DNA from: Akkermansia sp.
GTDB lineage: Bacteria > Verrucomicrobiota > Verrucomicrobiia > Verrucomicrobiales > Akkermansiaceae
Length of the DNA stretch: 64,000 bases
NCBI GenBank assembly: GCA_017555025.1
Contig: JAFZHC010000040.1
Coordinates: 1,711 to 65,710 of the forward strand
Direction of reading: 5' to 3'
Shown: piece after piece, positions 4,858-39,888 of the stretch
Numbering within the stretch: position 1 is the first letter of the stretch
Layout: every line of letters starts with the position of its first letter
Translations under genes and position numbers: made by a program
Notes under the pieces: generated by a model
Seen by the model: only the letters and a program-made list of their open reading frames with translations
Database searches by the model: none
Told to the model about the DNA's origin: nothing

Positions 4858-4881
4858 GAAGTTTTGCTGTTGCTTGCGGGA

Positions 4882-6963
4882 TTACTTCAGAATCATCTTG
4901 AAGTCCACCACAACGGCGCGATCGGCTGTTACGAGCACGGGGTTACCATCGATAGCGGTAATCTCGGGAATCTCGAGCACGAGCTTCTGCACCTTGGCAA
5001 GGGTATCGGCCAGCGGGCCTACAGCCTTGGGAGCCTCGCCGCGAACACCGTTCAGGATGGTGCCGACCTTGGTCTCCTTAATCATGTCGGAGAAGTCGTC
5101 GGTGGGCAGGATGCGCATGGTGGTGTCGCGCATGACCTCGGTGTACACACCGCCGGTGCCGAATACCATGACGCGGCCGAAGTTCTTGTCGGTGTTCACG
5201 CCGATGATGGTCTCGGTAGCCTTGGTAATCATCTCCTGAATGAGTACGGAAGCGCCCTTGAGCTGGAACTTGGTGATGGAGCCCCACAGGCCTTCCCAAG
5301 CCTCGTTGAAGGAAGCCTCGTCGTTGATGTTGAGGTAAATGCCCTTCATCTCGGTCTTGTGCAGAGCATCGGGAGCGGAGAGCTTGAGCACCACGGCGTT
5401 CGGGAAGATGGTCTTGCAGAAGGCGAGAGCCTCTTCCTTGTCGGTGAAGTTACCGCACTTGGGATAATCGATGCCGTAGTGGTCCATGAGCATGTTCACG
5501 GTCTCCTGGGGCAGGGAGGCAAGGCCGGCCTCCTTAGCAGCGGTCACAGCTGCCTTGATGTCGGCGGGAACCTCACCGGTCTCGCAGGTGGCAAGCTTCT
5601 TGCCGCGGAAAGCCATCTGAGCCTTCAGCAGACCGAGCAGGCGCACGATGTCGGCGGGGTACTCGTAGTTGAGAATCTTGGCCTCGTTAAGCAGCACGCG
5701 ACCCTCGTCCACACGGGCGCCACCCACGAAGGAGCAGTAGATGTTGACGTTGGGGTACTGAGGAGCCAGCTTGATAACGGCCTGAGCGGTCTCGGGGCAC
5801 TCGGTTACGCGCTGGGGGGTAAGGAGAACGAGAATGTTCTTGTACTCGCCGCTCTCGCAGAGCACCTTGAGGGCAGCCTCGTAGCGATCGGCCTTGGCGT
5901 CGCCCACTACGTCGATGGGGTTGCCCAGAGAAGCCTCGGGGGTGAGCACGGCACGCAGGGCAGCCTTGGTCTCTTCGCTGGGGGGAGCGAGGTCGAGGCC
6001 GGCCTCTTCGCAAAGGTCGGAGGTAAGCACGCCCACGCCACCGGCGTTGGTCAGTACGGCTACCTTGCCGTCAAACTGGTTGTGGTTGCAGTACTGCAGT
6101 ACTTCCAGCAGGCCGAAGAGCTCACGGTCGTTGTATGCCTGAATGGCGCCGGCACCCTGCAGAGCCATTTCGAGCACGCGATAGTTGGGAGCCAGAGAAC
6201 CGGTGTGGGAGAGGGAAGCAGCCTGAGCCTTGGCGCTCTTGCCGGGCTCCATGATTACGCAGGGCTTGGTGTCGGAAACCTCCTTGATAACCTTGAGGAA
6301 CTCCTTGCCGTTCTTGAGGGACTCGAGGTAGAACACGAAAGCGTTGGTGTTGGGGTCGTCCTTCAGAGCAGCGAGCAGGGCGTCTTCGCCCATAACGGCC
6401 TTGTTGCCGATGGAGATGAAGTGGGAGAAGCCGATGCCCTTACCGGCAGCCCAGTCCATGATGGCGGAGCAGTAAGCACCGGACTGAGAAACGAAAGCCA
6501 CGTTACCGCGGGCGGGGAAACCGTCAGCGAAGGAGGCATTCACGTTGTCGAACGTGGAGATGTGGCCAAGGCAGTTCGGACCAAGCAGGTTGATGCCGTT
6601 GTCCATGCACTTCTGGGCAATGCGCTTCTCAAGCTCCTTCTCACCCACTTCAGCGAAGCCGGCGGTGATGATGGAGATGTTCTTGGTGCCGTTGGCGATG
6701 CAGGCATCAATCACGCCCTCGGTGAAACGGGCAGGTACGAGAACTACCACCAGGTCCATGGGCTCAGGCAGAGTGTCTACGCTGGCGTAGCAAGGCTTGC
6801 CGCAGAGCTCCTGACCAGCCATTTTGGGGTTAACACCGTAGAGCTTGCCCTTGTAATCGGCAGAGATGATGTTGTTGAATACAACGGCGCCCAGCTTGGT
6901 GGGGTCGGCAGATACGCCGACAACAGCGATGCTCTTCGGATTGAAGAATGTTTCGAGTGACAT
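4882..6963 (-). CDS. Acetate/acyl-CoA ligase (ADP-forming), fused alpha-beta chain
   Basis: FFNPKSIAVVG, LGPNCLG, SQSGA, catalytic SHTGSLA, TNAGG, NPIDVVGDA; C-terminal ATP-grasp (VLKLS..LHKTE.KGI, DGNPVLV, VVVD); no GNAT domain. Confidence 0.9.
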   Translation of the reverse strand: MSLETFFNPKSIAVVGVSADPTKLGAVVFNNIISADYKGKLYGVNPKMAGQELCGKPCYASVDTLPEPMDLVVVLVPARFTEGVIDACIANGTKNISIITAGFAEVGEKELEKRIAQKCMDNGINLLGPNCLGHISTFDNVNASFADGFPARGNVAFVSQSGAYCSAIMDWAAGKGIGFSHFISIGNKAVMGEDALLAALKDDPNTNAFVFYLESLKNGKEFLKVIKEVSDTKPCVIMEPGKSAKAQAASLSHTGSLAPNYRVLEMALQGAGAIQAYNDRELFGLLEVLQYCNHNQFDGKVAVLTNAGGVGVLTSDLCEEAGLDLAPPSEETKAALRAVLTPEASLGNPIDVVGDAKADRYEAALKVLCESGEYKNILVLLTPQRVTECPETAQAVIKLAPQYPNVNIYCSFVGGARVDEGRVLLNEAKILNYEYPADIVRLLGLLKAQMAFRGKKLATCETGEVPADIKAAVTAAKEAGLASLPQETVNMLMDHYGIDYPKCGNFTDKEEALAFCKTIFPNAVVLKLSAPDALHKTEMKGIYLNINDEASFNEAWEGLWGSITKFQLKGASVLIQEMITKATETIIGVNTDKNFGRVMVFGTGGVYTEVMRDTTMRILPTDDFSDMIKETKVGTILNGVRGEAPKAVGPLADTLAKVQKLVLEIPEITAIDGNPVLVTADRAVVVDFKMILK

Positions 6964-7013
6964 AGTGAGTAATAGTGATTGGTGAGTGACTAGCCTACAG
7001 CGGCTCTGCATTT

Positions 7014-7042: not shown

Positions 7043-7087
7043 GCCTCAAATAGTGAAAAATCTATGTTATAGTAAGCTCTATGTGGC

Positions 7088-7119
7088 AAAAAATCGCCTC
7101 AGCTGATGGCTGAGGCGAT
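7088..7119 (-). terminator. Intrinsic terminator downstream of coaE-rho
   Basis: ATCGCCTCAGC / GCTGAGGCGAT 11-bp stem followed by T6 on the minus strand. Confidence 0.8.
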
Positions 7120-7137: not shown

Positions 7138-9036
7138 TTATTTTTTGTCGATCAGACCGCTGATGAGTAGCTCGGCATTGTTCTGCGTGCGGCGGATATT
7201 TTTGAGCAACAGTTCGAGGGCTTCCCATCCGGGGTGGCTGGCGAGCTGACGGCGCAGTTGCAGAATGCGGCTGAATTCGTCGGGGTGGTACAGGCGGTCG
7301 TCATTTCGCGTGCCACTCTGGGGAACGGATATGGCAGGGTACATGCGGCGCTCTGCGAGTTCGCGGTCCAGACGAATCTCCATATTACCGGTGCCTTTGA
7401 ATTCCTCGAAGATGATTTCATCCATGCGGGACTCCGTATCCACAAGGCAAGTGGCAATGATGGTCAGGCTGCCGCCTTCCTCCACATTGCGTGCTGCACC
7501 GAAGAATTTGCGGGGTTTTTCGAGAGCGTTGGAGCCGAGGCCGCCGGACATGATGCGCCCGCCGGTCTGGTTGGCATTGTAGCCGCGGGCGAGTCGGGTG
7601 AGCGAGTCGAGCATGATGATAACATTCTTGCCCTGTTCTACGAGGCGGCGGGCACGCTCCAGCACGAGGTCGCTCAGCTGGGCGTGGCGGCGGGAACTTT
7701 CGTCGAAAGTGGAGGCCAGTACGGGGGCGTCCACCGTTTCCTCAAAGTCTGTCACTTCCTCGGGGCGCTCGTCGAGCAGGAGAATGAGCAATTCAGCATC
7801 GGGATAATTAGCGCGTATGGATTTGGCCATGCTCTTGAGCAGCACGGTCTTACCACCGCGGGGCGGGGCAACCACGAGGGCGCGCTGCCCCATGCCGACG
7901 GGGGTGATGAGGTCGAGCACGCGCATGGAGGGGAGCTTGAGCTCAGCATTTTCGAGGATGATGCGCTCGCGCGGGAAGAGCGGGGTGAGCTTATCAAACT
8001 CCTTGGGGGCTGTGTATTCTGCGGCGAGGGTACCTTCAATCTCAAGTACATCTCCGGCACGCAGCGGTTTGTTGGCCTTAGCGCTCTGATCTTGCGAGAG
8101 GCGGAGCATCACCTTATTGCCGGGGCGCAGCCCGTAGCGCTTAATGAGCTCATTCGGTACGGCGATATCGTCAATCTCATGGCGGTAGCTGCGGTTCTCG
8201 TCGCGCAGCAGCACATTGCCCTCCTTGGTGAAGTCGAGCACACCCTGTACCTGCACTTGATTACCCAAGCGGGCAAAAGTGCGGCAGAGCTCCATCGTAA
8301 GCTCCTGGCGAGTTTTACCGATAACGCCTTTCTTGATGTTCTCCTCGGCCAGCTTGCGCAGCTCATTGAGCGGCATGATGCGCAACTCGTTCATGTTGAC
8401 GAGTTTGGCACGCTGGTTTACTACTTCAGCCACTTTGGCCAGTTCGGAGTCGAAGAAGTACTTGACCTGCGAGCGCAGCATGTCCAGGCTGCCCTCATTC
8501 CAGAATACGGTGCCGGATTTCTCGATTTTTTCCTGCGTGGGCATCTGGGCGGCCAGCATAGCCTCGGCTGCGGCGCGGTCAAAGCCATCGCGCTCAGCCA
8601 TACGCTTAATCTGGGTTTCGGGGGTGACTGCTACTAAGCACACGCGGTCTGCGCCGAAATCAGCCGGACTTTCAAAATAGAGGGGAATGTCGATGAGGAA
8701 AGTGTGCACAAGCTCGGAGCGGCGTGCTTCAAACTGAGCCTCTTTGCAAAGTTGGGCAACCTTGGGGTGTACAATGGCATTGAGCTTATTGCGCCCTTCG
8801 GGGTCATGCTTGACCACCTCACGCAGCAGGTCTTTATTGACAGAGCCATCATCGAGCAGGGCATCTGCACCAAAGGCCGTCACCAGGTCGCGGGACAGTT
8901 TGCCGCTCTTCTGCAATTCTTCCACTGCCTTATCGCAGTCAAATACTTGCAAACCATTTCCGCCGATTTCACTAAGCAGATTGACAACTGTGGATTTACC
9001 TGATGCGATGCCGCCTGTAACAACAATAACCTTCAC
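7138..9036 (-). CDS. rho: Fusion: dephospho-CoA kinase (CoaE, aa ~1-195) plus transcription termination factor Rho
   Basis: N-terminal VTGGIASGKST, DIPLYFE, AQMP..EK; then the Rho N-helix (LNELRKLA), APPRGGKT, LLLDERPEEVTD, DSLTRLARGYN, FFGAARNVEEGGSLTI, EEFKGTGNME. One uninterrupted frame. Confidence 0.92.
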   Translation of the reverse strand: MKVIVVTGGIASGKSTVVNLLSEIGGNGLQVFDCDKAVEELQKSGKLSRDLVTAFGADALLDDGSVNKDLLREVVKHDPEGRNKLNAIVHPKVAQLCKEAQFEARRSELVHTFLIDIPLYFESPADFGADRVCLVAVTPETQIKRMAERDGFDRAAAEAMLAAQMPTQEKIEKSGTVFWNEGSLDMLRSQVKYFFDSELAKVAEVVNQRAKLVNMNELRIMPLNELRKLAEENIKKGVIGKTRQELTMELCRTFARLGNQVQVQGVLDFTKEGNVLLRDENRSYRHEIDDIAVPNELIKRYGLRPGNKVMLRLSQDQSAKANKPLRAGDVLEIEGTLAAEYTAPKEFDKLTPLFPRERIILENAELKLPSMRVLDLITPVGMGQRALVVAPPRGGKTVLLKSMAKSIRANYPDAELLILLLDERPEEVTDFEETVDAPVLASTFDESSRRHAQLSDLVLERARRLVEQGKNVIIMLDSLTRLARGYNANQTGGRIMSGGLGSNALEKPRKFFGAARNVEEGGSLTIIATCLVDTESRMDEIIFEEFKGTGNMEIRLDRELAERRMYPAISVPQSGTRNDDRLYHPDEFSRILQLRRQLASHPGWEALELLLKNIRRTQNNAELLISGLIDKK

Positions 9037-9043
9037 GGGCGAG

Positions 9044-9072
9044 ACTTTAACATGTTTTCAGCCACCTTGCAA
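9044..9072 (-). promoter_or_regulatory. Promoter of coaE-rho (leaderless geometry)
   Basis: TTGCAA-17-TAAAGT, 7 nt before the GTG start. Confidence 0.55.
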
Positions 9073-9165: not shown

Positions 9166-10560
9166 TTATTCGTACACTACGATGATTCTGGCAACGGCGG
9201 GTAATTCTGAGCGCAGTTTGCGGTTAATGGCCGTCAGGCGCTCATGGCTTTCCTGTACATTAAGGCAGCATTCCTGCGGTATGGTGATGATGCAGAAACG
9301 GCGGTTGCCGGCTGTGTAGAGGCTGATGCCGGTTGGCAAGGGGGCACCGCTGGTAATCATTGCCTGGCGCACCAGTTGCTCCCAATCATCGGGTACAGGG
9401 GTGGCGTAGGCGGGGATTTCGCGCAGGTCGGGCTCAACATGCACCATCACTCGGTCGGCGTTCAGTCGCAGGCTGACTTCTTTGCGGAAGGCCTGAATGG
9501 CAATGTGCCAGCTATCGAGCGAGGCGTTCCCCGGCAATTCGAGGTCAGCAAATACGGTGTAGCCCTGTTCACTCTGCATGAGCACTAAGCCATGCACGCC
9601 GAAGCGGTGGGTGAGGGCAATGCGGCGCACCAGCATTTCGTGTGAGTCGGGTTCGGCATCTTTGGGGTGCATGTGTACTGCTGTTTCGGCACCCGGCAGG
9701 GCGGCAGAAATAAGCTCTTCGATTGCCTCTGATATATCGTGAGCGGTATCTACGTGCAGTTCTCGGGGTACGGCCACCACCATTTCAATGTAAGCTTTGT
9801 TGCCCACCTCGCGCACGCGCAAGGTTTGTAAAGGGTAGGCAGGCATGCGCTCTGCCATCAGGCGGCGTACCGTGCGGGCGGATTCCCCGTCGGTCTTGTC
9901 CATCAGATTGTTGATGGATTTACAGCCCAGCTCCCAGCAGATGTGCAGAATCAGCACAGCAACGGCCAGCGAGGCCAGTACGTCCGCACGTAGGAGCAGC
10001 CAGTTAAGCCAACTGCCCTCAAGGGTCATGTGAGCGACTGCTGCACCGCTGATACCCAGCAACACCGCAGCACTACTCCAGATGTCGGAGGCAAAGTGCG
10101 CGGCATCGGCCTCGAGCGCATCGCTTTTCGTCTCCTTGGCCACGCGTTTGAGCATGGCGGCGCGGTTAATGTCCACCACCAGCGAGACGATGATGACTAC
10201 AAAGGCCCATACATTTGTCTCCACATGTAGAGCCTCGGCGCTATCGCTGGTCAGGCGCTCAATGGCCTCCATAATAACCCAACCGGCGGTGATGAGCAGC
10301 AGCAGCGTTTCTGCCAGGGCGGTGAGGCTCTCCACGCGCCCGTGCCCGTAGGGGTGTTCGGCATCGGCCGGGCGTGCAGCCAGCTTAACCGCAAAATATG
10401 TACCGAGAGCCGCCAGCATATCAAGCGCACTATGCAGCGCCTCCGACAGTATACCCAGTGAGCCCGTCACAATTCCCACGATAAACTTCATGACCGTGAG
10501 CAATGCGCTCCACAAGACGGAAGACCCGGCGGCGATGGCTTTCTTTGTATCGGCATCCAT
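9166..10560 (-). CDS. Cation diffusion facilitator (FieF-like) with three tandem C-terminal dimerisation-type domains
   Basis: SEALHSALD, HPYGHGRVESL, ADAAHFASD; three ~75-aa repeats ending VHMHP, VHVEP and IVVYE. Confidence 0.9.
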   Translation of the reverse strand: MDADTKKAIAAGSSVLWSALLTVMKFIVGIVTGSLGILSEALHSALDMLAALGTYFAVKLAARPADAEHPYGHGRVESLTALAETLLLLITAGWVIMEAIERLTSDSAEALHVETNVWAFVVIIVSLVVDINRAAMLKRVAKETKSDALEADAAHFASDIWSSAAVLLGISGAAVAHMTLEGSWLNWLLLRADVLASLAVAVLILHICWELGCKSINNLMDKTDGESARTVRRLMAERMPAYPLQTLRVREVGNKAYIEMVVAVPRELHVDTAHDISEAIEELISAALPGAETAVHMHPKDAEPDSHEMLVRRIALTHRFGVHGLVLMQSEQGYTVFADLELPGNASLDSWHIAIQAFRKEVSLRLNADRVMVHVEPDLREIPAYATPVPDDWEQLVRQAMITSGAPLPTGISLYTAGNRRFCIITIPQECCLNVQESHERLTAINRKLRSELPAVARIIVVYE

Positions 10561-10571
10561 AGTGTGGCCTC

Positions 10572-10601
10572 ATGATAGCACACCGTATGTGCTTTAGTCA
10601 A
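10572..10601 (-). promoter_or_regulatory. Promoter of the CDF gene with a dyad in the spacer
   Basis: TTGACT-18-TATCAT; AGCACA-N5-TGTGCT inverted repeat at 10577-10593. Confidence 0.55.
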
Positions 10602-10630
10602 GACAAACTGATGTCGCGACAAAGGCCGCA

Positions 10631-11122
10631 TCATACGAGCTGAGCGGCCATGGTAAGGGCGGCTATGAGGGGTGCCAGACAGCGTGTCGCCGTTAGTTCG
10701 AAGGGGTAGGGGGCAGATAGGTCGATGGGGGAGGCTGCAATGTAAGCACCAATGCAGAGATTGAGTTCTTGTTGGCTGAGTTTATATTTGCTGCGTTGGC
10801 GGTGCAATAGCAGCTCCGTTGCAATGGTGCAGAGCAGGGTGAGGGTGAAAACCCCGGTACTGAACATGTGGCAGATGAACAATGTGAGGTTAACCGGTAT
10901 GGAGAGCAGCAGCAGAGACAGCAGATTGGCCGCTGAACGTCCGATAGCCCGTTGTTCTGCCGGCATGGTACGGTAGCATTTCTCGAGTTTATTGATGGAA
11001 ATGCCGACAAGCTTGCAGATGAGGGCTCGCGTGAAGTAATACAACACCCCCAAGGGAATGAGCAGGAACAGTAGCTCGAAGTGGGCCTGTAGTGTAGGGG
11101 AGTTGAACATGGAGAAAGTCAA
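10631..11122 (-). CDS. Hypothetical membrane protein
   Basis: Several hydrophobic segments; TTG start overlaps the upstream stop (an ATG at 11110 is an alternative). Confidence 0.5.
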   Translation of the reverse strand: MTFSMFNSPTLQAHFELLFLLIPLGVLYYFTRALICKLVGISINKLEKCYRTMPAEQRAIGRSAANLLSLLLLSIPVNLTLFICHMFSTGVFTLTLLCTIATELLLHRQRSKYKLSQQELNLCIGAYIAASPIDLSAPYPFELTATRCLAPLIAALTMAAQLV

Positions 11123-11541
11123 TGCGCAAAAAAGCCGAGGTATAGCAACTCTTCCTGTGGGTTGTACACCACCCAGCGCACTCGGTTGGCGATTTCGTTG
11201 TTGAGGTAAATGACAGAATCAGATTGTCGAATCTCGTGGAGAGTGGGGAAAAAGCACTCGGTGGGGGAAGCAACTTTTTGCCAGCCTTGGCCGGGGGTGA
11301 GCTGCTGAGCCTGTAAAGTGGCAAATTCCGAAGCTGCAAGGTTGTAGCGGAAGCGACATCCCAGCGGGTTAATTGCTTCCCAATCGGGGTTACAGACGGC
11401 GCCGGCTGCGGTGGGGTTAATGCCGACAAGTTTGAAGGCCGTGCGGGTCATGTCGGCTTTTTCAGCCGCAATGAAGCCCAGCATCAGCAGCACGGGTACC
11501 AGCAGAATCCATTTGAAAACGCGCAGCATGGTGTCTGTCAT
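11119..11541 (-). CDS. Hypothetical exported or membrane-anchored protein
   Basis: N-terminal hydrophobic helix; start overlaps the rseP stop (TAATG). Confidence 0.6.
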   Translation of the reverse strand: MTDTMLRVFKWILLVPVLLMLGFIAAEKADMTRTAFKLVGINPTAAGAVCNPDWEAINPLGCRFRYNLAASEFATLQAQQLTPGQGWQKVASPTECFFPTLHEIRQSDSVIYLNNEIANRVRWVVYNPQEELLYLGFFAH

Positions 11542-12986
11542 TAGGGTTGCGTGGTGGAGAATACCGGGGGCGGCAGTTGCTGCTCATCCTCACCGCTGCC
11601 CACATTATCACCAACATCCTTGAGGGTGATGAAAACAAACATGAACATGAGCAAGAAGACGAATGCCATGCTGATGGCGTCCACAATCTTGCTGTTCAGC
11701 GGTTTGCCACGCAGCAGCTCAATGAAGCCAAGCACCACGTGACCGCCGTCCACTACCGGCAGAGGAAGAATGTTGAGTATAGCCAAGTTGACGTTGAGAA
11801 CAACGGCAAACCACAGCACCAGGCGCCAGCCTACGCCGTCACCGGCCTGGAACATCTGGTACATATAGGTGCCGATGCCGACGGGGCCGCTGAGGTGCTC
11901 CATGCCGATGCTGCTGCCGGGGGCGCAGACTTTGGCGATGGTCTCTTTCATCCATTTGAGGCTTTGGTTCACCTGAGCCTGGGGGGCGGGGTGCTCAAAC
12001 TTTACCTCTACATCTGCTACCAGCCAGCTGAAGCCCATGATGGGGTGTGCGCCGCTCATGCCCTGCCAGTTGGTAGGGGTGGCGGGGGTCAGCTCAGCTG
12101 TAGTGGTGCTGCCATCGCTGTTGCTGAGGGTGAGCTGCAGGGGGCTGCCCTTTTCTGCTTCGGCCATGACGGCATAGGGGGTATAGACGGCGGTGCCGTT
12201 GACTGCGGTGATGGTCTGCCCTTTCTTCAGGCCGGCTTGCTCGGCGGGAGAGCCGGGTATGATGTCGCCCACAATGGCTGGCTGTACGGGCATGATGCCG
12301 ACCTGACGCAGAGCGCTGCGCTGCCACCACGATGTTTCAGGTACTTTATAACCGCTGGTGATTTCGAGTGTCTGCTCTGTGCCATCTGCCATGGGGCGAG
12401 AGACGGTGAAGTGAATGGTCTCGCCCTCGCCGAGGGCGATGAGCTCACGCACACCCTCCATGTTGCCGGCCCATTTGGTAACGCTGCGGCCATCGATGGC
12501 AAGGATGCGGTCCCCCGGCTGCAAGGCTGATTCGGCAGCGGCTGAATTGGGGGCGATGTAGCCAATGACGGTGTCTTCCATCTCGGCAACGGGCTTGCCT
12601 ACCCCCCATACGATTACGGCAAAGGCATAGGCCAGCAGCAGGGAGAAAAGCGGACCGGCGGCGGCAATGATAATTTTGTCAATCGCTTTGAGGGGTTTAA
12701 GGTCTTTCGGCATATCGGCTTTGCCCTCAATGCTCTGCATGTCCTCCAGCTGGGGCAGGGATACGAAGCCGCCCAAGGGCAGCCAGCCTATGCCCCAACG
12801 CACGCCTTTGATTGTTTTACTCCAAATGGGCTTGCCGAACCAGATTTGAAAACGGTCGATGTAGGCACCGCGCCATTTGCCGGCAAGGAAATGACCCAGC
12901 TCATGCACAAAAATCATGAGATTGAAGAACAGAATGACCAGCAATATAATGCCTGCGGTCTGAAGTGCAGAAAGGATGGTTGCCAT
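11541..12986 (-). CDS. rseP: RIP metalloprotease RseP (M50, PDZ domains)
   Basis: FVHELGH, LPLGGFV, IAAAGP, two PDZ segments, LSGPVGI, NILPLPVVDGGH. Confidence 0.95.
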   Translation of the reverse strand: MATILSALQTAGIILLVILFFNLMIFVHELGHFLAGKWRGAYIDRFQIWFGKPIWSKTIKGVRWGIGWLPLGGFVSLPQLEDMQSIEGKADMPKDLKPLKAIDKIIIAAAGPLFSLLLAYAFAVIVWGVGKPVAEMEDTVIGYIAPNSAAAESALQPGDRILAIDGRSVTKWAGNMEGVRELIALGEGETIHFTVSRPMADGTEQTLEITSGYKVPETSWWQRSALRQVGIMPVQPAIVGDIIPGSPAEQAGLKKGQTITAVNGTAVYTPYAVMAEAEKGSPLQLTLSNSDGSTTTAELTPATPTNWQGMSGAHPIMGFSWLVADVEVKFEHPAPQAQVNQSLKWMKETIAKVCAPGSSIGMEHLSGPVGIGTYMYQMFQAGDGVGWRLVLWFAVVLNVNLAILNILPLPVVDGGHVVLGFIELLRGKPLNSKIVDAISMAFVFLLMFMFVFITLKDVGDNVGSGEDEQQLPPPVFSTTQP

Positions 12987-13136
12987 AATCGTTGTATTGC
13001 TGTTATCCTGCCACAGGCTGCTCGCTCTTGCAAGCTTTCCTTCTGCCATAATGTGTCAAAATTGTCACATTAAAATCATTAAAATTTGGCTTGACCTTTT
13101 AATGGCTCTATGTTCTAATGTCCTGCATTCAGAGCA

Positions 13137-13730: not shown

Positions 13731-15572
13731 TTATTTGCTGAGGAGTTTTTCCAGCAGCGCCTGAGAGTTGTCAGCAAGCTTGGCCGGGTCATCGAGCATG
13801 CCGGCACGCAGCAGGGCGGTGTTGATGAGCTGATCTGCCAGCAGGGTGGCAAGCTCCTCGTTCTCCGTACGCAGGGCTGCGAGTTTCTGCACGATGGGGT
13901 TGTGCGGGTTGAAGGCAATCTCCGGGTGCGTCTCGGGAACGGGTTGTCCCATCGCCTTGAGGTAGGCCTTAATTTCGGGGGAGATATCGTTCTCGCCCTG
14001 TAGTGCGATGGCGGGCGCTGAGCTCACTCGGTCGCTGGTAGTTACTTTGCTGAAGGAATCCTTGAAGGTTTCGGTTACCCATTCGGTGAGAGCCTTGGCC
14101 TGTTCTTCGTCCAGGCCGGGGCGGTCGGGCTGACCTTCCAGCGGGGGCAAATCAAGGTTGGCGCGGTCGATGGACTTAATCTCCTTGTCCTCCACCTTCA
14201 TGAGGCTTTCGACGACGAATTGGTCGCCGCCATCGGTGAAGAAAGCCACTTCAAAGCCGCGAGCTTGCAGCGCATCCAAGTAGGGGCTGTGCTCCAGCTG
14301 TGCTCGGGACGCGCCGAAGAGCACGTAGACATCCTTCTGGTTTTCCTTCATGCGGCTCACATAATCGGCAAAGGAGGTCAGTTTGCCGGGCTCAGTAAAG
14401 GTGGACTCGAAGCGCAGCAGCTTGCCCAAGGTATCCTTGTGCTCCCAAGAGGTCACGATACCTTCTTTCACAAAGCGGCTGTAACGGCGCCAGAACTCCT
14501 CGTATTTTTCAGCGTCGTCCTTGGCGAGCCCCTCGAGGTGCTTGATGAAGCGCTTGGTGATGATGCCGGAGATGCGGCGCAGCAGGGAGTTGTCCTGCAG
14601 CATTTCACGGGAGATGTTCAGGGGCAGGTCTTCGCTGTCTACCACACCGGTGAGGAAACGCAGCCACTCGGGCAGCAGGTTGTCGGGCTTGCTGTCGATG
14701 AGTACTTTGTGGCAGTAGAGTGCTACATTGGGCTCGCAGCGGCCAAAGCCCATGGCCTCGGGATTGTCCTCGGGGACAAACAGAACTGAGTTGAGAACGA
14801 TGGGAGCATCGGCGCTGAAGTGCATGTAGGTCAGAGGGGAGCTCTCGCTGTGAGCGGTGAACTTGTAGAAAGCCTCATACTCTTCGGGCTTGACGTCCTT
14901 CTTGTTCTTCATCCAGATGGCCTGCACGGTGTTGAGGTGCTCGCCGTTGAAGTCAATGGGGAAACCTACGAAGTTGCTGTACTTGTTGATGATGTGGCGT
15001 ACATGCTCAGCGCGGGCAAAGTCGGTGGCGTCATCCTTGAGGTGGATGCGGATGGCTGTGCCGCGAGGTGTGTCGGCGGGGGCGTCTTCCATGGTGTAAC
15101 CCTCCTTGCCATCGCTGGTCCATTTCACGGCTGTAGCATCGGGCTGCCAGGAGCGGGTGGTGACTTCCACCTTGTCGGCTGCCATGAATACGCTGTAGAA
15201 GCCTACGCCGAACTGGCCGATGAGGTCCTGTGTGCCGCCCTTGCTCTCCTTCATCATTTCCAGGAACTTCTTGGTGCCGGAGTGAGCAATGGTGCCGAGG
15301 TACTCCACAACCTCGTCACGGGTCATGCCGATACCGGCATCGGCGATGGTGAGGGTTTTGCCCTCCTCATCGGTGGTGATGGTGATGCGCAGCTCGCGCT
15401 CCGGCTCATAGACGGTGGCGTTGGTGAGTTGCTTCAGGCGCAGCTTTTCGAGGGCGTCAGAGGCATTGGAGACAAGCTCACGCACAAAGACCTCGCGGTC
15501 GCTGTAGAAGGCGTGAATGACGATGTCGAGCAACTGTCGTACTTCTGTCTGAAATTGATGTGTATTGGCCAT
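13731..15572 (-). CDS. htpG: Molecular chaperone HtpG (Hsp90)
   Basis: FQTEV, EVFVRELVSNASDALEK, DAGIGM, IAHSGT, IGQFGVGFYS; start MANTH at 15572. Confidence 0.96.
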   Translation of the reverse strand: MANTHQFQTEVRQLLDIVIHAFYSDREVFVRELVSNASDALEKLRLKQLTNATVYEPERELRITITTDEEGKTLTIADAGIGMTRDEVVEYLGTIAHSGTKKFLEMMKESKGGTQDLIGQFGVGFYSVFMAADKVEVTTRSWQPDATAVKWTSDGKEGYTMEDAPADTPRGTAIRIHLKDDATDFARAEHVRHIINKYSNFVGFPIDFNGEHLNTVQAIWMKNKKDVKPEEYEAFYKFTAHSESSPLTYMHFSADAPIVLNSVLFVPEDNPEAMGFGRCEPNVALYCHKVLIDSKPDNLLPEWLRFLTGVVDSEDLPLNISREMLQDNSLLRRISGIITKRFIKHLEGLAKDDAEKYEEFWRRYSRFVKEGIVTSWEHKDTLGKLLRFESTFTEPGKLTSFADYVSRMKENQKDVYVLFGASRAQLEHSPYLDALQARGFEVAFFTDGGDQFVVESLMKVEDKEIKSIDRANLDLPPLEGQPDRPGLDEEQAKALTEWVTETFKDSFSKVTTSDRVSSAPAIALQGENDISPEIKAYLKAMGQPVPETHPEIAFNPHNPIVQKLAALRTENEELATLLADQLINTALLRAGMLDDPAKLADNSQALLEKLLSK

Positions 15573-15692
15573 AATGGTTGAGAAAATCGTGCCTCCTATT
15601 CTACGCGCGTGCGCGGCGGCGTCAAGGGCAATGCATGTCAGCAGCCTCATGCTGCCCGCTACTCGGGTGAGGTCGTGGAAATGGTAATCAAA

Positions 15693-35392: not shown

Positions 35393-36109
35393 ATGAACGG
35401 TTTTAGAATCACTGTGCTGGCTCTGCTTGTGCTTGCCGTGGGCCTGATGATGTATGTTATCTTCGTGAAACTGCCTGATATGCAGGCAGATCACAACATC
35501 TATGAAATTTCTCAGAAGTCTGCTCAGGTGGCTCAGCAGGATGCCGGCCACCGCGAGCGCGTGAGCATTTACGGCGAGGCCGCAGAGAACTCGAGCTTGG
35601 CTTCCGCTTACTCCGAGGCTGCCGAAGCTGACCGTACTGCTGAATCTTCTGTACATGAGGCCGAGGCTCGTGCCGTGATAGAGGATGCCAAGCGCAAGGC
35701 CGATGCCGCTATGGCCGAGCAGATTAAGGAGGAAGGTGCTGCTCCCACTACTATCGGTCTGGTTAAATCGTTCAACAAAGATTGGGTGTCTATCATGTTC
35801 ATGCCCGCAGTGAAGGACCCCATAACGGAAGGTCTTGTAGTGGCTGTTCGCCGTGAAGGGATTGTGCTCTGCGAGGCTACGGTCGACTTCATCGATGAGG
35901 AGTCCGGTCAGGTTGGCGCAACGCTCAAGCCTCAGGAGTTCGGAAAAGCTCAGGTGAATATCGATGAGGAGAAGATGTTGCCCATTCCCGGCGATGAAGT
36001 TATCTACTCACCGTTCTCCTCCGCTAAAGATTTGCGCTCGCAGAATAGTTTCCTCACGCCCCAGCCTCTCAGCGTACCCAAGAACAGCACGGAGCCTGCA
36101 CCACTCTGA
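35393..36109 (+). CDS. Hypothetical membrane-anchored protein (coiled coil plus beta domain)
   Basis: N-terminal TM; strong codon bias; promoter TTGAAA-16-TATACT 7 nt upstream. Confidence 0.7.
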   Translation: MNGFRITVLALLVLAVGLMMYVIFVKLPDMQADHNIYEISQKSAQVAQQDAGHRERVSIYGEAAENSSLASAYSEAAEADRTAESSVHEAEARAVIEDAKRKADAAMAEQIKEEGAAPTTIGLVKSFNKDWVSIMFMPAVKDPITEGLVVAVRREGIVLCEATVDFIDEESGQVGATLKPQEFGKAQVNIDEEKMLPIPGDEVIYSPFSSAKDLRSQNSFLTPQPLSVPKNSTEPAPL

Positions 36110-38860: not shown

Positions 38861-38932
38861 GGCCCCGTAGTTCAATGGATAGAACGGCCCTCTCCTAAAG
38901 GGCAGATGTGGGTTCGATTCCCGCCGGGGCTG
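38861..38932 (+). tRNA. tRNA-Arg (anticodon CCT), CCA not encoded
   Basis: Cloverleaf: GGCCCCG acceptor, GTTC/GAAC D arm, GCCCT-CTCCTAA-AGGGC anticodon arm, GTGGG-TTCGATT-CCCGC T arm. Confidence 0.96.
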
Positions 38933-39888
38933 CTTCAAAAACGCTCAGTTTCGTCAAAGAAATTGACAAAAACGTGTCTGGAGTGTACGCTCACATCGAC
39001 AAGATTCTGGATTACTTCATGAGCCATGAATCTTTCAATCGAGAAGATGCTCAGTCTTTCGTACGTCAGCAAAAGCCTTACACGCTAAAGAATGACTACT
39101 CAAAAACATGGCGTCTGGCTGATATGTTGGATGCGCCTGAGCTATACGAAGCCTATCCTCGGTTAAAAGATATCTTGGTTTCCGAAGAAGACATGGGCGA
39201 CCCGCAAAATGCTGGCTCAACAGAACGCAACGATATAACAATCAATGAAAATTCTCCAGCGAGACTCCAGTTTGAGACTCTTCTTCACGAGACTCAGCAC
39301 ATCATTCAGGATATTGAAGAGTTTGCCGCAGGCTCTGACCCTGATACTGTTTATACGCAGTTCCAAAAAGCGTATGAAAGAATTGCCAAAATTGCCAAAG
39401 GGGGAGTTAATACAAGATTGGCGTCTCGCAAGATGGCAGATGGTATACTTAAGACATTTGTATCGCTTGCAAAAGACATCGCGCCTAATAAAACAAGAAC
39501 TGAAATCCTCATAAACCGTTTAACTGATGGCCTTTGGCCTAAAGTATTAAACGAAGTCGGTTTATATTTGAGAGCTGCTGGAGAAGTAGAAGCCCGAAAC
39601 GTAACCAGCCGCTTAGATTGGACATTAGAACAGAGGAAAAACATCCCCTTTAACGACACCCTTAAGTACAATGGTGAAGCCTGGGTTGACTTCTCTTTAA
39701 TAGCAGACCATCTGGAAAGCTGGCAGCGCGACCCTGTGGCTGAGCTTGGCGAACTGGGGCGATTTGGCAACAATATACAAGGTAAACTGGCTCCAATTGG
39801 AGAAAACGTATACGATGAGCGCGTTACCGCAATGATAAACGCCTTGAGCTGCCTTTTGTTTCCATTACCAAGAGCCGTAGGTCCATGA
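38933..39888 (+). pseudogene. Truncated fragment of a phage/ICE large polyvalent protein (LPD23-like zincin domain)
   Basis: L.D.LD.PELY.AYP.L, TLLHETQHIIQDIE.FA.GS, YLRAAGEVEARNV..R....EQRK..P; AT-richer than the flanks; frame open back into the tRNA; first ATG at 39019. Confidence 0.72.

Follow-up and report, generated by a model that had tools for sequence, protein, structure and literature searches.

Dephospho-CoA kinase fused in frame to transcription termination factor Rho in a clade of uncultured Akkermansia-like bacteria

Introduction

Rho is a general transcription terminator that is essential in many bacteria. On a 64,000-nucleotide stretch of DNA from Akkermansia sp. (GenBank assembly GCA_017555025.1, contig JAFZHC010000040.1, positions 1,711 to 65,710 of the forward strand; this whole stretch is called the window below), a single gene encodes Rho joined in frame to dephospho-coenzyme A (dephospho-CoA) kinase, CoaE. 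Here we describe this coaE::rho gene, its relatives, its likely origin and what the fusion may mean for the function of both partners.

Among described proteins, the Rho half is readily compared with Escherichia coli Rho (PDB 1PVO, 3ICE, 1PV4), which has the same fold and the same motor residues and aligns over its full length; relative to it, the fusion protein begins with an extra enzyme domain of 195 residues joined by a helical connector, has F62, F64, Y80 and Y110 replaced, and carries arginine in place of three lysines. Additions N-terminal to the Rho core are common in the Planctomycetota-Verrucomicrobiota-Chlamydiota (PVC) group (PMC11347177; PMC12360218). In Type 2 Rho, for example in Bacteroides thetaiotaomicron and Mycobacterium tuberculosis (Moreira et al. 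2024), additional sequence is found towards the N-terminus, as here, and such additions are intrinsically disordered or prion-like and aid RNA binding or condensation (PMC11347177; PMC12360218). Unlike in Type 2 Rho, however, the addition described here is a folded, predicted catalytically intact kinase (AlphaFold2 per-residue confidence, pLDDT, about 85-93) followed by a structured helix, and not low-complexity sequence. Neither the 2024 survey of Rho diversity in 2,730 genomes (PMC11347177) nor the 2025 review of Rho (PMC12360218) mentions CoaE or any enzyme fusion. A full-text literature search also found no description of a CoaE-Rho fusion; such an absence does not prove that the fusion is unreported, but it is apparently undescribed.

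The CoaE fold can stay active when joined to another domain, as in the bifunctional phosphopantetheine adenylyltransferase-dephospho-CoA kinase (PPAT-DPCK) and in two-domain CoaE. Both the PPAT-DPCK CoA synthase (PDB 2F6R) and a 415-residue two-domain CoaE (PDB 6N39) were among the matches to the CoaE domain of the fusion protein. In these multi-domain proteins the partner of CoaE is an enzyme of the CoA pathway or a small accessory domain, whereas here it is a hexameric RNA translocase.

Results and discussion

Domain composition of the fusion protein

The fusion occupies window positions 7138-9036 on the minus strand, and all coordinates are given on this convention. Its parts are as follows.

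7138..9036, minus strand: coaE::rho fusion coding sequence, a single intact open reading frame (ORF) of 632 amino acids plus stop, GTG-initiated
9034..9036, minus strand: GTG start codon, which is GTG in 80/80 related loci and yields a canonical CoaE N-terminus, MKVIVVTGGIASGKST
8452..9036, minus strand: dephospho-CoA kinase domain, residues 1-195 (Pfam PF01121, 131 bits; TIGR00152, 125 bits)
8989-9015, minus strand: CoaE P-loop GGIASGKST, residues 8-16
8395..8451, minus strand: connector, residues 196-214 (19 amino acids), predicted to prolong the C-terminal helix of CoaE
8251..8394, minus strand: Rho N-terminal helix bundle, residues 215-262, aligned with E. coli Rho 3-50
8002..8250, minus strand: Rho OB-fold RNA-binding domain, residues 263-345, with a decayed aromatic pocket
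7141..8001, minus strand: Rho RecA-type ATPase/translocase domain, residues 346-632
7846-7869, minus strand: Rho Walker A motif APPRGGKT, residues 390-397

The Pfam database assigns CoaE to residues 3-184 of the protein (E 3.7e-38; PF01121, 131.4 bits against a cutoff of 27), a partial Rho_RNA_bind match to residues 263-317 (32.7 bits) and ATP-synt_ab to residues 371-574. In NCBIfam, the CoaE model TIGR00152 matches residues 3-191 (125.3 bits; cutoff 65.55), and the Rho model PRK09376 matches residues 214-624 over positions 2-410 of its 413 (471.7 bits; cutoff 315). The stricter Rho model TIGR00767 scores 465 bits, under its cutoff of 509, because the N-terminal domain of this Rho is divergent. 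Sequence matches in PDB were found for the CoaE domain (E 7.6e-25), and residues 214-622 align with E. coli Rho 2-411 (E 1e-98). When the AlphaFold2 model was compared with PDB by fold, only Rho chains were matched, and no two-domain CoaE-Rho precedent was found. The first-pass annotation, made from the letters alone, had proposed an intact CoaE fused in frame to a full Rho; the single ORF and the matches to both families bear this out, and the two P-loops that it had named are both present.

The fusion is real and is fixed in one clade

When one genome of each species was scanned, 119 proved to contain a relative, and the best 80 were analysed as related loci; most clade counts below refer to 78 of these 80. 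In all 80, residues 1-261 of the query, which span the junction, were matched as one segment at 57-85% identity. A complete fused ORF of 628-635 amino acids is present in 77 of them, and the remaining three are cut by a contig end. A search of 5.8 billion proteins gave the same picture: the identical three-domain architecture in 120/120 top clusters, at 70-100% identity and mostly with 629-635 amino acids.

The sequence comes from metagenome assemblies, and in general such a fusion could stem from an error of assembly or sequencing, or its CoaE part could be a catalytically dead remnant. We find either hardly credible. Logan contigs from four separate studies (gut, bovine and sheep metagenomes) cross the junction and differ there by substitutions alone, free of indels. 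The fusion is not an assembly artefact, because all 77 complete species-level loci are fused and independent assemblies cross the junction. Decay of the kinase is contradicted by the invariance of its P-loop, DxD and HP motifs, lid arginines and Q164 and by a ratio of nonsynonymous to synonymous substitution rates (dN/dS) of 0.135 for the CoaE domain; dS is near saturation, which makes this and all other dN/dS values given here approximate. The artefact and decay readings are thus effectively refuted already.

The genomes are labeled as Akkermansia sp. or as Akkermansiaceae or Verrucomicrobiales metagenome-assembled genomes, with one listed just as "uncultured bacterium". Isolate names, where they tell the source, point to the gut contents of cattle, sheep, goat, water buffalo, deer, yak or horse. 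The clade in which the fusion is fixed thus consists of uncultured, Akkermansia-like bacteria that come mostly from herbivore guts.

One irregularity in the assemblies lies within the gene: at window positions 7370-7443 contigs break and depth spikes in every metagenome compared (in X6, from 121 to 705). The cause is a tangle in the assembly graph and not the gene itself, because the Rho ATPase is highly conserved there and contigs of other species pile up.

The kinase half

Every clade member has K14, D33, D35, H90-P91, R145, R149 and Q164, and the P-loop from G8 to T16 is likewise invariant. The roles of the GxxGxGKS/T P-loop, of the DxD motif after strand 2 and of the arginines in the lid region we take to be those known from CoaE structures. 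Since all catalytic motifs are kept under strong purifying selection, the CoaE domain is most likely an active enzyme, and the fusion is probably the cell's only dephospho-CoA kinase. A search confined to the 64-kb window found no second coaE or rho there.

The motor and the RNA pocket of the Rho half

The C-terminal 418 residues look like an active, complete Rho motor. The Walker A and B motifs, the catalytic glutamate (E211), the arginine valve and the arginine finger (R366) are all present, and the equivalents of E. coli K184, E211, R212, D265 and R366 are invariant in 78/78 loci. The dN/dS of the ATPase is 0.10, and that of the N-terminal helix bundle and OB fold is 0.29-0.32 (OB fold, 0.32). 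AlphaFold2 predicts three helices in the bundle (residues 215-220, 223-233 and 243-256) as well as the OB fold. Three functionally important lysines of E. coli Rho, K181 beside Walker A, K283 of the Q-loop and K326 of the R-loop, have arginine as their equivalent in all 78 clade members:

about 7858-7860, 7555-7557 and 7426-7428, minus strand: arginine for K181, K283 and K326, residues 393, 494 and 537

The first of these replacements is also general among the related verrucomicrobial Rho proteins that we examined.

It is the primary RNA-binding site that sets this clade apart. In the window protein F62 is replaced by asparagine, F64 by leucine and Y80 by alanine, and the Y110 region (residues 318-328) has no aromatic residue. 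We counted any aromatic residue near each site, which avoids dependence on the exact alignment: one is found near Y80 in 7/78 clade members vs 132/147 other Rho proteins, and near Y110 in 12/78 vs 122/147. The anchor residues of the pocket, R66 and D78, are retained in all 78. Both the nearest unfused relative, P0122, and fused forms with a long connector, such as P0121, keep the pocket aromatics. The primary RNA-binding aromatic pocket of Rho has thus decayed, and has done so specifically in this clade. The survey of Rho diversity found the RNA-binding domain generally conserved, with RNP1 non-conserved in some members of the PVC group and Actinomycetota (PMC11347177), so that variation of the pocket has a partial precedent.

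The connector

The first-pass annotation had described the two domains as joined by a short linker. With 19 residues the connector is indeed short, but it is not loose. All clade members share L199 and A203 and nearly all share R209, the dN/dS is 0.25, and in the AlphaFold2 model residues 184-210 form one helix that leads from CoaE almost straight into the Rho helix bundle. The connector is thus predicted to be a rigid helix and not a loose tether.

Promoter, start and terminator

The gene has its own transcription signals:

9067..9072, minus strand: -35 element TTGCAA (TTGnnn and a 17-nucleotide spacer kept in 74/78 loci)
9044..9052, minus strand: extended -10 element TGtTAAAGT (TG at 9052-9051, TAAAGT at 9049-9044), which ends 7 nucleotides before the GTG
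7087..7119, minus strand: intrinsic terminator with an 11-bp stem (7119-7093, 7 G-C pairs), a 5-nucleotide loop and TTTTTT

A promoter in front and an intrinsic terminator behind had both been claimed from the window alone. The stem and T-run agree with the second claim, whereas the first was borne out by comparison: a simple promoter scan missed the promoter, and the alignment of related loci revealed it. TTGnnn-17-TAnnnT occurs in 74/78 loci vs 0.3% of random positions; among these 74, the extended TG is present in 73, and the -10 element ends 6-8 nucleotides ahead of the GTG in 73. A Shine-Dalgarno-like motif precedes the GTG in just one of the 78 loci. Because a conserved extended -10 element abuts a conserved GTG that almost always lacks such a motif, the mRNA is probably leaderless or near-leaderless.

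The same geometry precedes about six other long ORFs of the window (starts at 35393, 53860, 53707(-), 50135(-), 47407(-) and 22112(-)), where TTGnnn-(16-18)-TAnnnT, mostly with the extended TG, ends 5-9 nucleotides ahead of the first ATG. Leaderless transcription thus seems to be a general tendency of this genome and not peculiar to the fusion gene.

The products of gene callers disagree at this locus and its relatives, with 473 amino acids (from Met160, in P0041), 603-613 (without the P-loop), 632, or 643-689 (over-extended); at 9866-11899 of the related locus L029, the over-extended ORF covers an upstream tRNA-like gene and its terminator. A GTG start without a ribosome-binding site is the likely cause of the disagreement.

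Transcripts are sparse. In the sole metatranscriptome with the window gene there are two contigs of 151 nucleotides, both within the Rho part; in L029, RNA contigs lie over both halves at low depth. We also considered an autoregulatory, rut-like region within coaE and rejected it: the mRNA is rich in G over its first ~200 nucleotides (C-G = -0.125), contrary to a rut site, and a Rho-dependent attenuator within coaE is therefore not indicated. Near the fusion gene, scans for Rfam families and tRNAs gave no relevant match; the sole structured RNA in the window at Rfam gathering thresholds is a tRNA-Arg (CCT) at 38861-38933 (+).

One polypeptide rather than two

A gene of this kind might also yield two products, if translation also began internally (at Met215, or at Met160/165) or an internal promoter were used, so that free Rho is made as well, in which case the hexamer would be mostly ordinary Rho. 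The first-pass annotation had raised an internal start at MNELRIM, that is, at codon 215, and this codon is indeed ATG in the window. Across 78 loci, though, it is CTC in 26, CTG in 22, ATG in 21, ATC in 4, CTT in 3 and ATT and TTG in 1 each; the residue is leucine or isoleucine in 57/78, and the codon is a non-start codon (CTC, CTT, ATC or ATT) in 34/78. Met215 aligns with Leu3, and not with Met1, of E. coli Rho. No Shine-Dalgarno-like sequence was found before codon 215, and synonymous variation is not lowered across codons 140-235 (z between -0.4 and +1.5). Codon usage at this position, the alignment with Leu3 and the absent synonymous dip together rule out a conserved internal start for free Rho, and the start at MNELRIM did not hold up. 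A weak promoter-like site at 8582-8555 within coaE could also speak for two products, but its -35 element overlaps the variable codon 153; likewise, one gene caller's 473-residue version does start at Met160, but a start there would cut the CoaE fold. Taken together, this comparative evidence makes a two-product gene very unlikely: a separate Rho appears not to be made as a conserved feature, whereas a minor internal product is possible in this particular species.

Origin of the fusion from neighboring genes

The nearest Rho proteins without a CoaE domain (P0122, P0124, P0126 and P0127; 49-58% identical) are encoded directly downstream of a separate coaE in all four cases. The two genes overlap by 4 bp, or by 16 bp in P0126, and the ATGA stop/start overlap could be read directly in loci L081 and L082. 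An Amuc_1100/secretin pilus cluster lies upstream in three of the four loci (P0122, P0124 and P0127). The same pair is known from the literature: a figure in a 2026 paper places dephospho-CoA kinase and rho next to the MUL2 locus in A. muciniphila and aquatic Akkermansiaceae (PMC13174399). This Akkermansia-type pair is like the fusion in gene identity and order; its Rho proteins, at 56-58% identity, stand closest on the tree, and its CoaE proteins, 34-38% identical, have the same motifs. It differs in consisting of two genes that overlap by 4 bp (ATGA), in the Lys/Glu/Ala-rich low-complexity tail of 95-240 residues with which its Rho begins, in flanking genes unlike those of the fused loci and in mostly keeping the aromatics at Y80 and Y110.

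The N-terminal tails of the unfused Rho proteins are 50-240 residues long and, in three of four, Lys/Glu/Ala-rich and of low complexity. The statement that N-terminal extensions of Rho are usually low-complexity thus agrees with the related proteins (cf. PMC11347177). We looked for a decayed CoaE in the unfused long Rho proteins, but the N-termini of P0124, P0122 and P0127 are plain low-complexity tails. The separate CoaE of these relatives terminates a few residues past the equivalent of F194.

Six more CoaE-Rho fusions were found at 39-58% identity (P0121, P0123, P0125, P0129, P0173 and P0272). In P0121 and the others CoaE is N-terminal to Rho in a single ORF, as here; their connectors have 25-160 residues and are Pro-rich or charged and of low complexity. 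P0125 and P0129 differ from our clade in keeping a canonical RNA pocket and the Rho_N domain; the P0129 gene lies immediately downstream of polA, and polA is two genes upstream of P0125. In a neighbor-joining tree of the Rho core, the clade with the short connector is monophyletic (bootstrap 99) and is sister to P0121, which is fused through a long connector (72); both join the unfused P0122 and P0124 (100). Farther out, fused and unfused forms are interleaved, and the pair was therefore fused or split more than once. On this phylogeny, coaE-rho is an old translationally coupled pair.

The fused and unfused loci share no flanking synteny, and no secretin, Amuc_1100 or RNase D gene lies near the fused genes; the neighborhoods of P0121 and P0272, which were also checked, are not the ancestral one. 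These comparisons qualify the suggestion that the fusion is a lineage-wide trait of Akkermansiaceae. The trait does belong to a lineage, with at least 80 species-level genomes carrying it, but it is not family-wide, as the loci with the Amuc_1100 cluster are unfused.

These relatives make the origin of the fusion clear. The ancestral arrangement, which the nearest of them retain, has coaE directly upstream of rho with the ATGA overlap, and a Rho with a Lys/Glu/Ala-rich disordered tail; loss of the stop codon would have joined the two frames, and in this clade the spacer would then have been cut down to the helical connector of 19 residues. The gene is monocistronic, with a conserved sigma-70-type promoter, the GTG start and the intrinsic terminator, and its product would be one polypeptide of 632 residues. 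The Rho hexamer would bear six kinase domains on its outer N-terminal face.

Passive fusion or functional coupling

We consider it probable that this is a fusion of neighboring genes that gave a bifunctional protein, in which the kinase sits at the periphery, where relatives carry disordered tails, and the two activities are independent. Fusion of translationally coupled neighbors accounts for the architecture, and coupling between the activities is therefore not required; most likely the fusion would merely enforce 1:1 co-expression.

Several points weigh against this reading. A conserved, predicted-rigid connector and a clade-specific decay of the pocket are both unexpected for a purely passive fusion. 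One of the RNA contigs of L029 begins 71 nucleotides upstream of the GTG, spans the promoter and starts just past a tRNA gene; it is probably read-through from that gene. The near-saturation of dS bears on the selection estimates as well.

The alternative is that the kinase domain is part of how Rho works, tying termination to the metabolic state or altering how RNA is loaded. It might sense adenylate, dephospho-CoA or CoA, recognize 5' ends capped with dephospho-CoA, or replace the decayed pocket sterically or electrostatically. The invariant residues and the predicted continuous helix, which would fix CoaE beside the N-terminal domain of Rho, are in its favor, as are the loss of the F62, Y80 and Y110 aromatics specifically in the clade, while P0122 and P0121 keep them, and the faster evolution of the N-terminal domain of Rho than of CoaE (dN/dS 0.29-0.32 vs 0.135). 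Yet there is no direct sign of any ligand effect, and the AlphaFold2 model is of a monomer and carries no inter-domain confidence. The fusions P0125 and P0129 combine long disordered connectors with a fully canonical pocket; fusion therefore does not require loss of the pocket. RNP1 is non-conserved in some PVC and Actinomycetota Rho proteins that have no fusion (PMC11347177). On balance we regard functional coupling as unlikely.

More doubtful still is its most specific form, in which the kinase would be held rigidly on the N-terminal face of Rho as part of substrate or ligand recognition and would offset the decayed pocket, so that loading and termination depend on adenine-nucleotide or CoA ligands or on RNA capped with dephospho-CoA. 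The first-pass annotation had suggested that CoA or dephospho-CoA status could be linked to termination, but nothing in the comparisons that we computed favors control of termination by CoA or dephospho-CoA status or by dephospho-CoA caps. An independent kinase and terminator in one polypeptide thus remains the reading that we prefer.

Neighboring genes

The genes around the fusion are as follows.

4882-7011, minus strand: ADP-forming acyl/acetyl-CoA synthetase (CoA_binding, Succ_CoA_lig, ATP-grasp_5), directly downstream of the fusion
7042-7014, minus strand: promoter-like site of the acyl/acetyl-CoA synthetase, strong (10/12 matches, with TG)
9166-10560, minus strand: cation-diffusion-facilitator transporter, upstream
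11541-13049, minus strand: RseP-type M50 site-2 protease with a PDZ domain, upstream
13731-15650, minus strand: HtpG (Hsp90), upstream

A CoA-using enzyme thus adjoins a CoA-making one. The synthetase gene follows the fusion in 25 related loci, and its conservation is unusually high, with about 96% amino acid identity vs ~71% for the fusion. The upstream order of transporter, RseP-type protease and HtpG is retained in just 9-15 related loci. Two long ORFs are antisense to these genes, one of 467 amino acids at 7234-8637 (+) opposite the fusion and one of 698 amino acids at 4864-6960 (+) opposite the CoA ligase; their translations are of low complexity and rich in Gly, Ala, Leu and Val, which suggests that they are shadow ORFs of coding DNA and not genes.

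Implications

The source records name these proteins just "transcription termination factor Rho". Because of this annotation, automated metabolic reconstructions may list the final step of CoA synthesis as absent from gut Akkermansia-like genomes. For the biology of Rho, the clade offers a natural test case of the extent to which Rho needs its primary RNA-binding site and of whether termination takes metabolic input. If the kinase does take part in ligand recognition, metabolism would act directly on factor-dependent termination; should the fusion be passive, it remains a clear example, open to dating, of how a translationally coupled pair becomes one gene.

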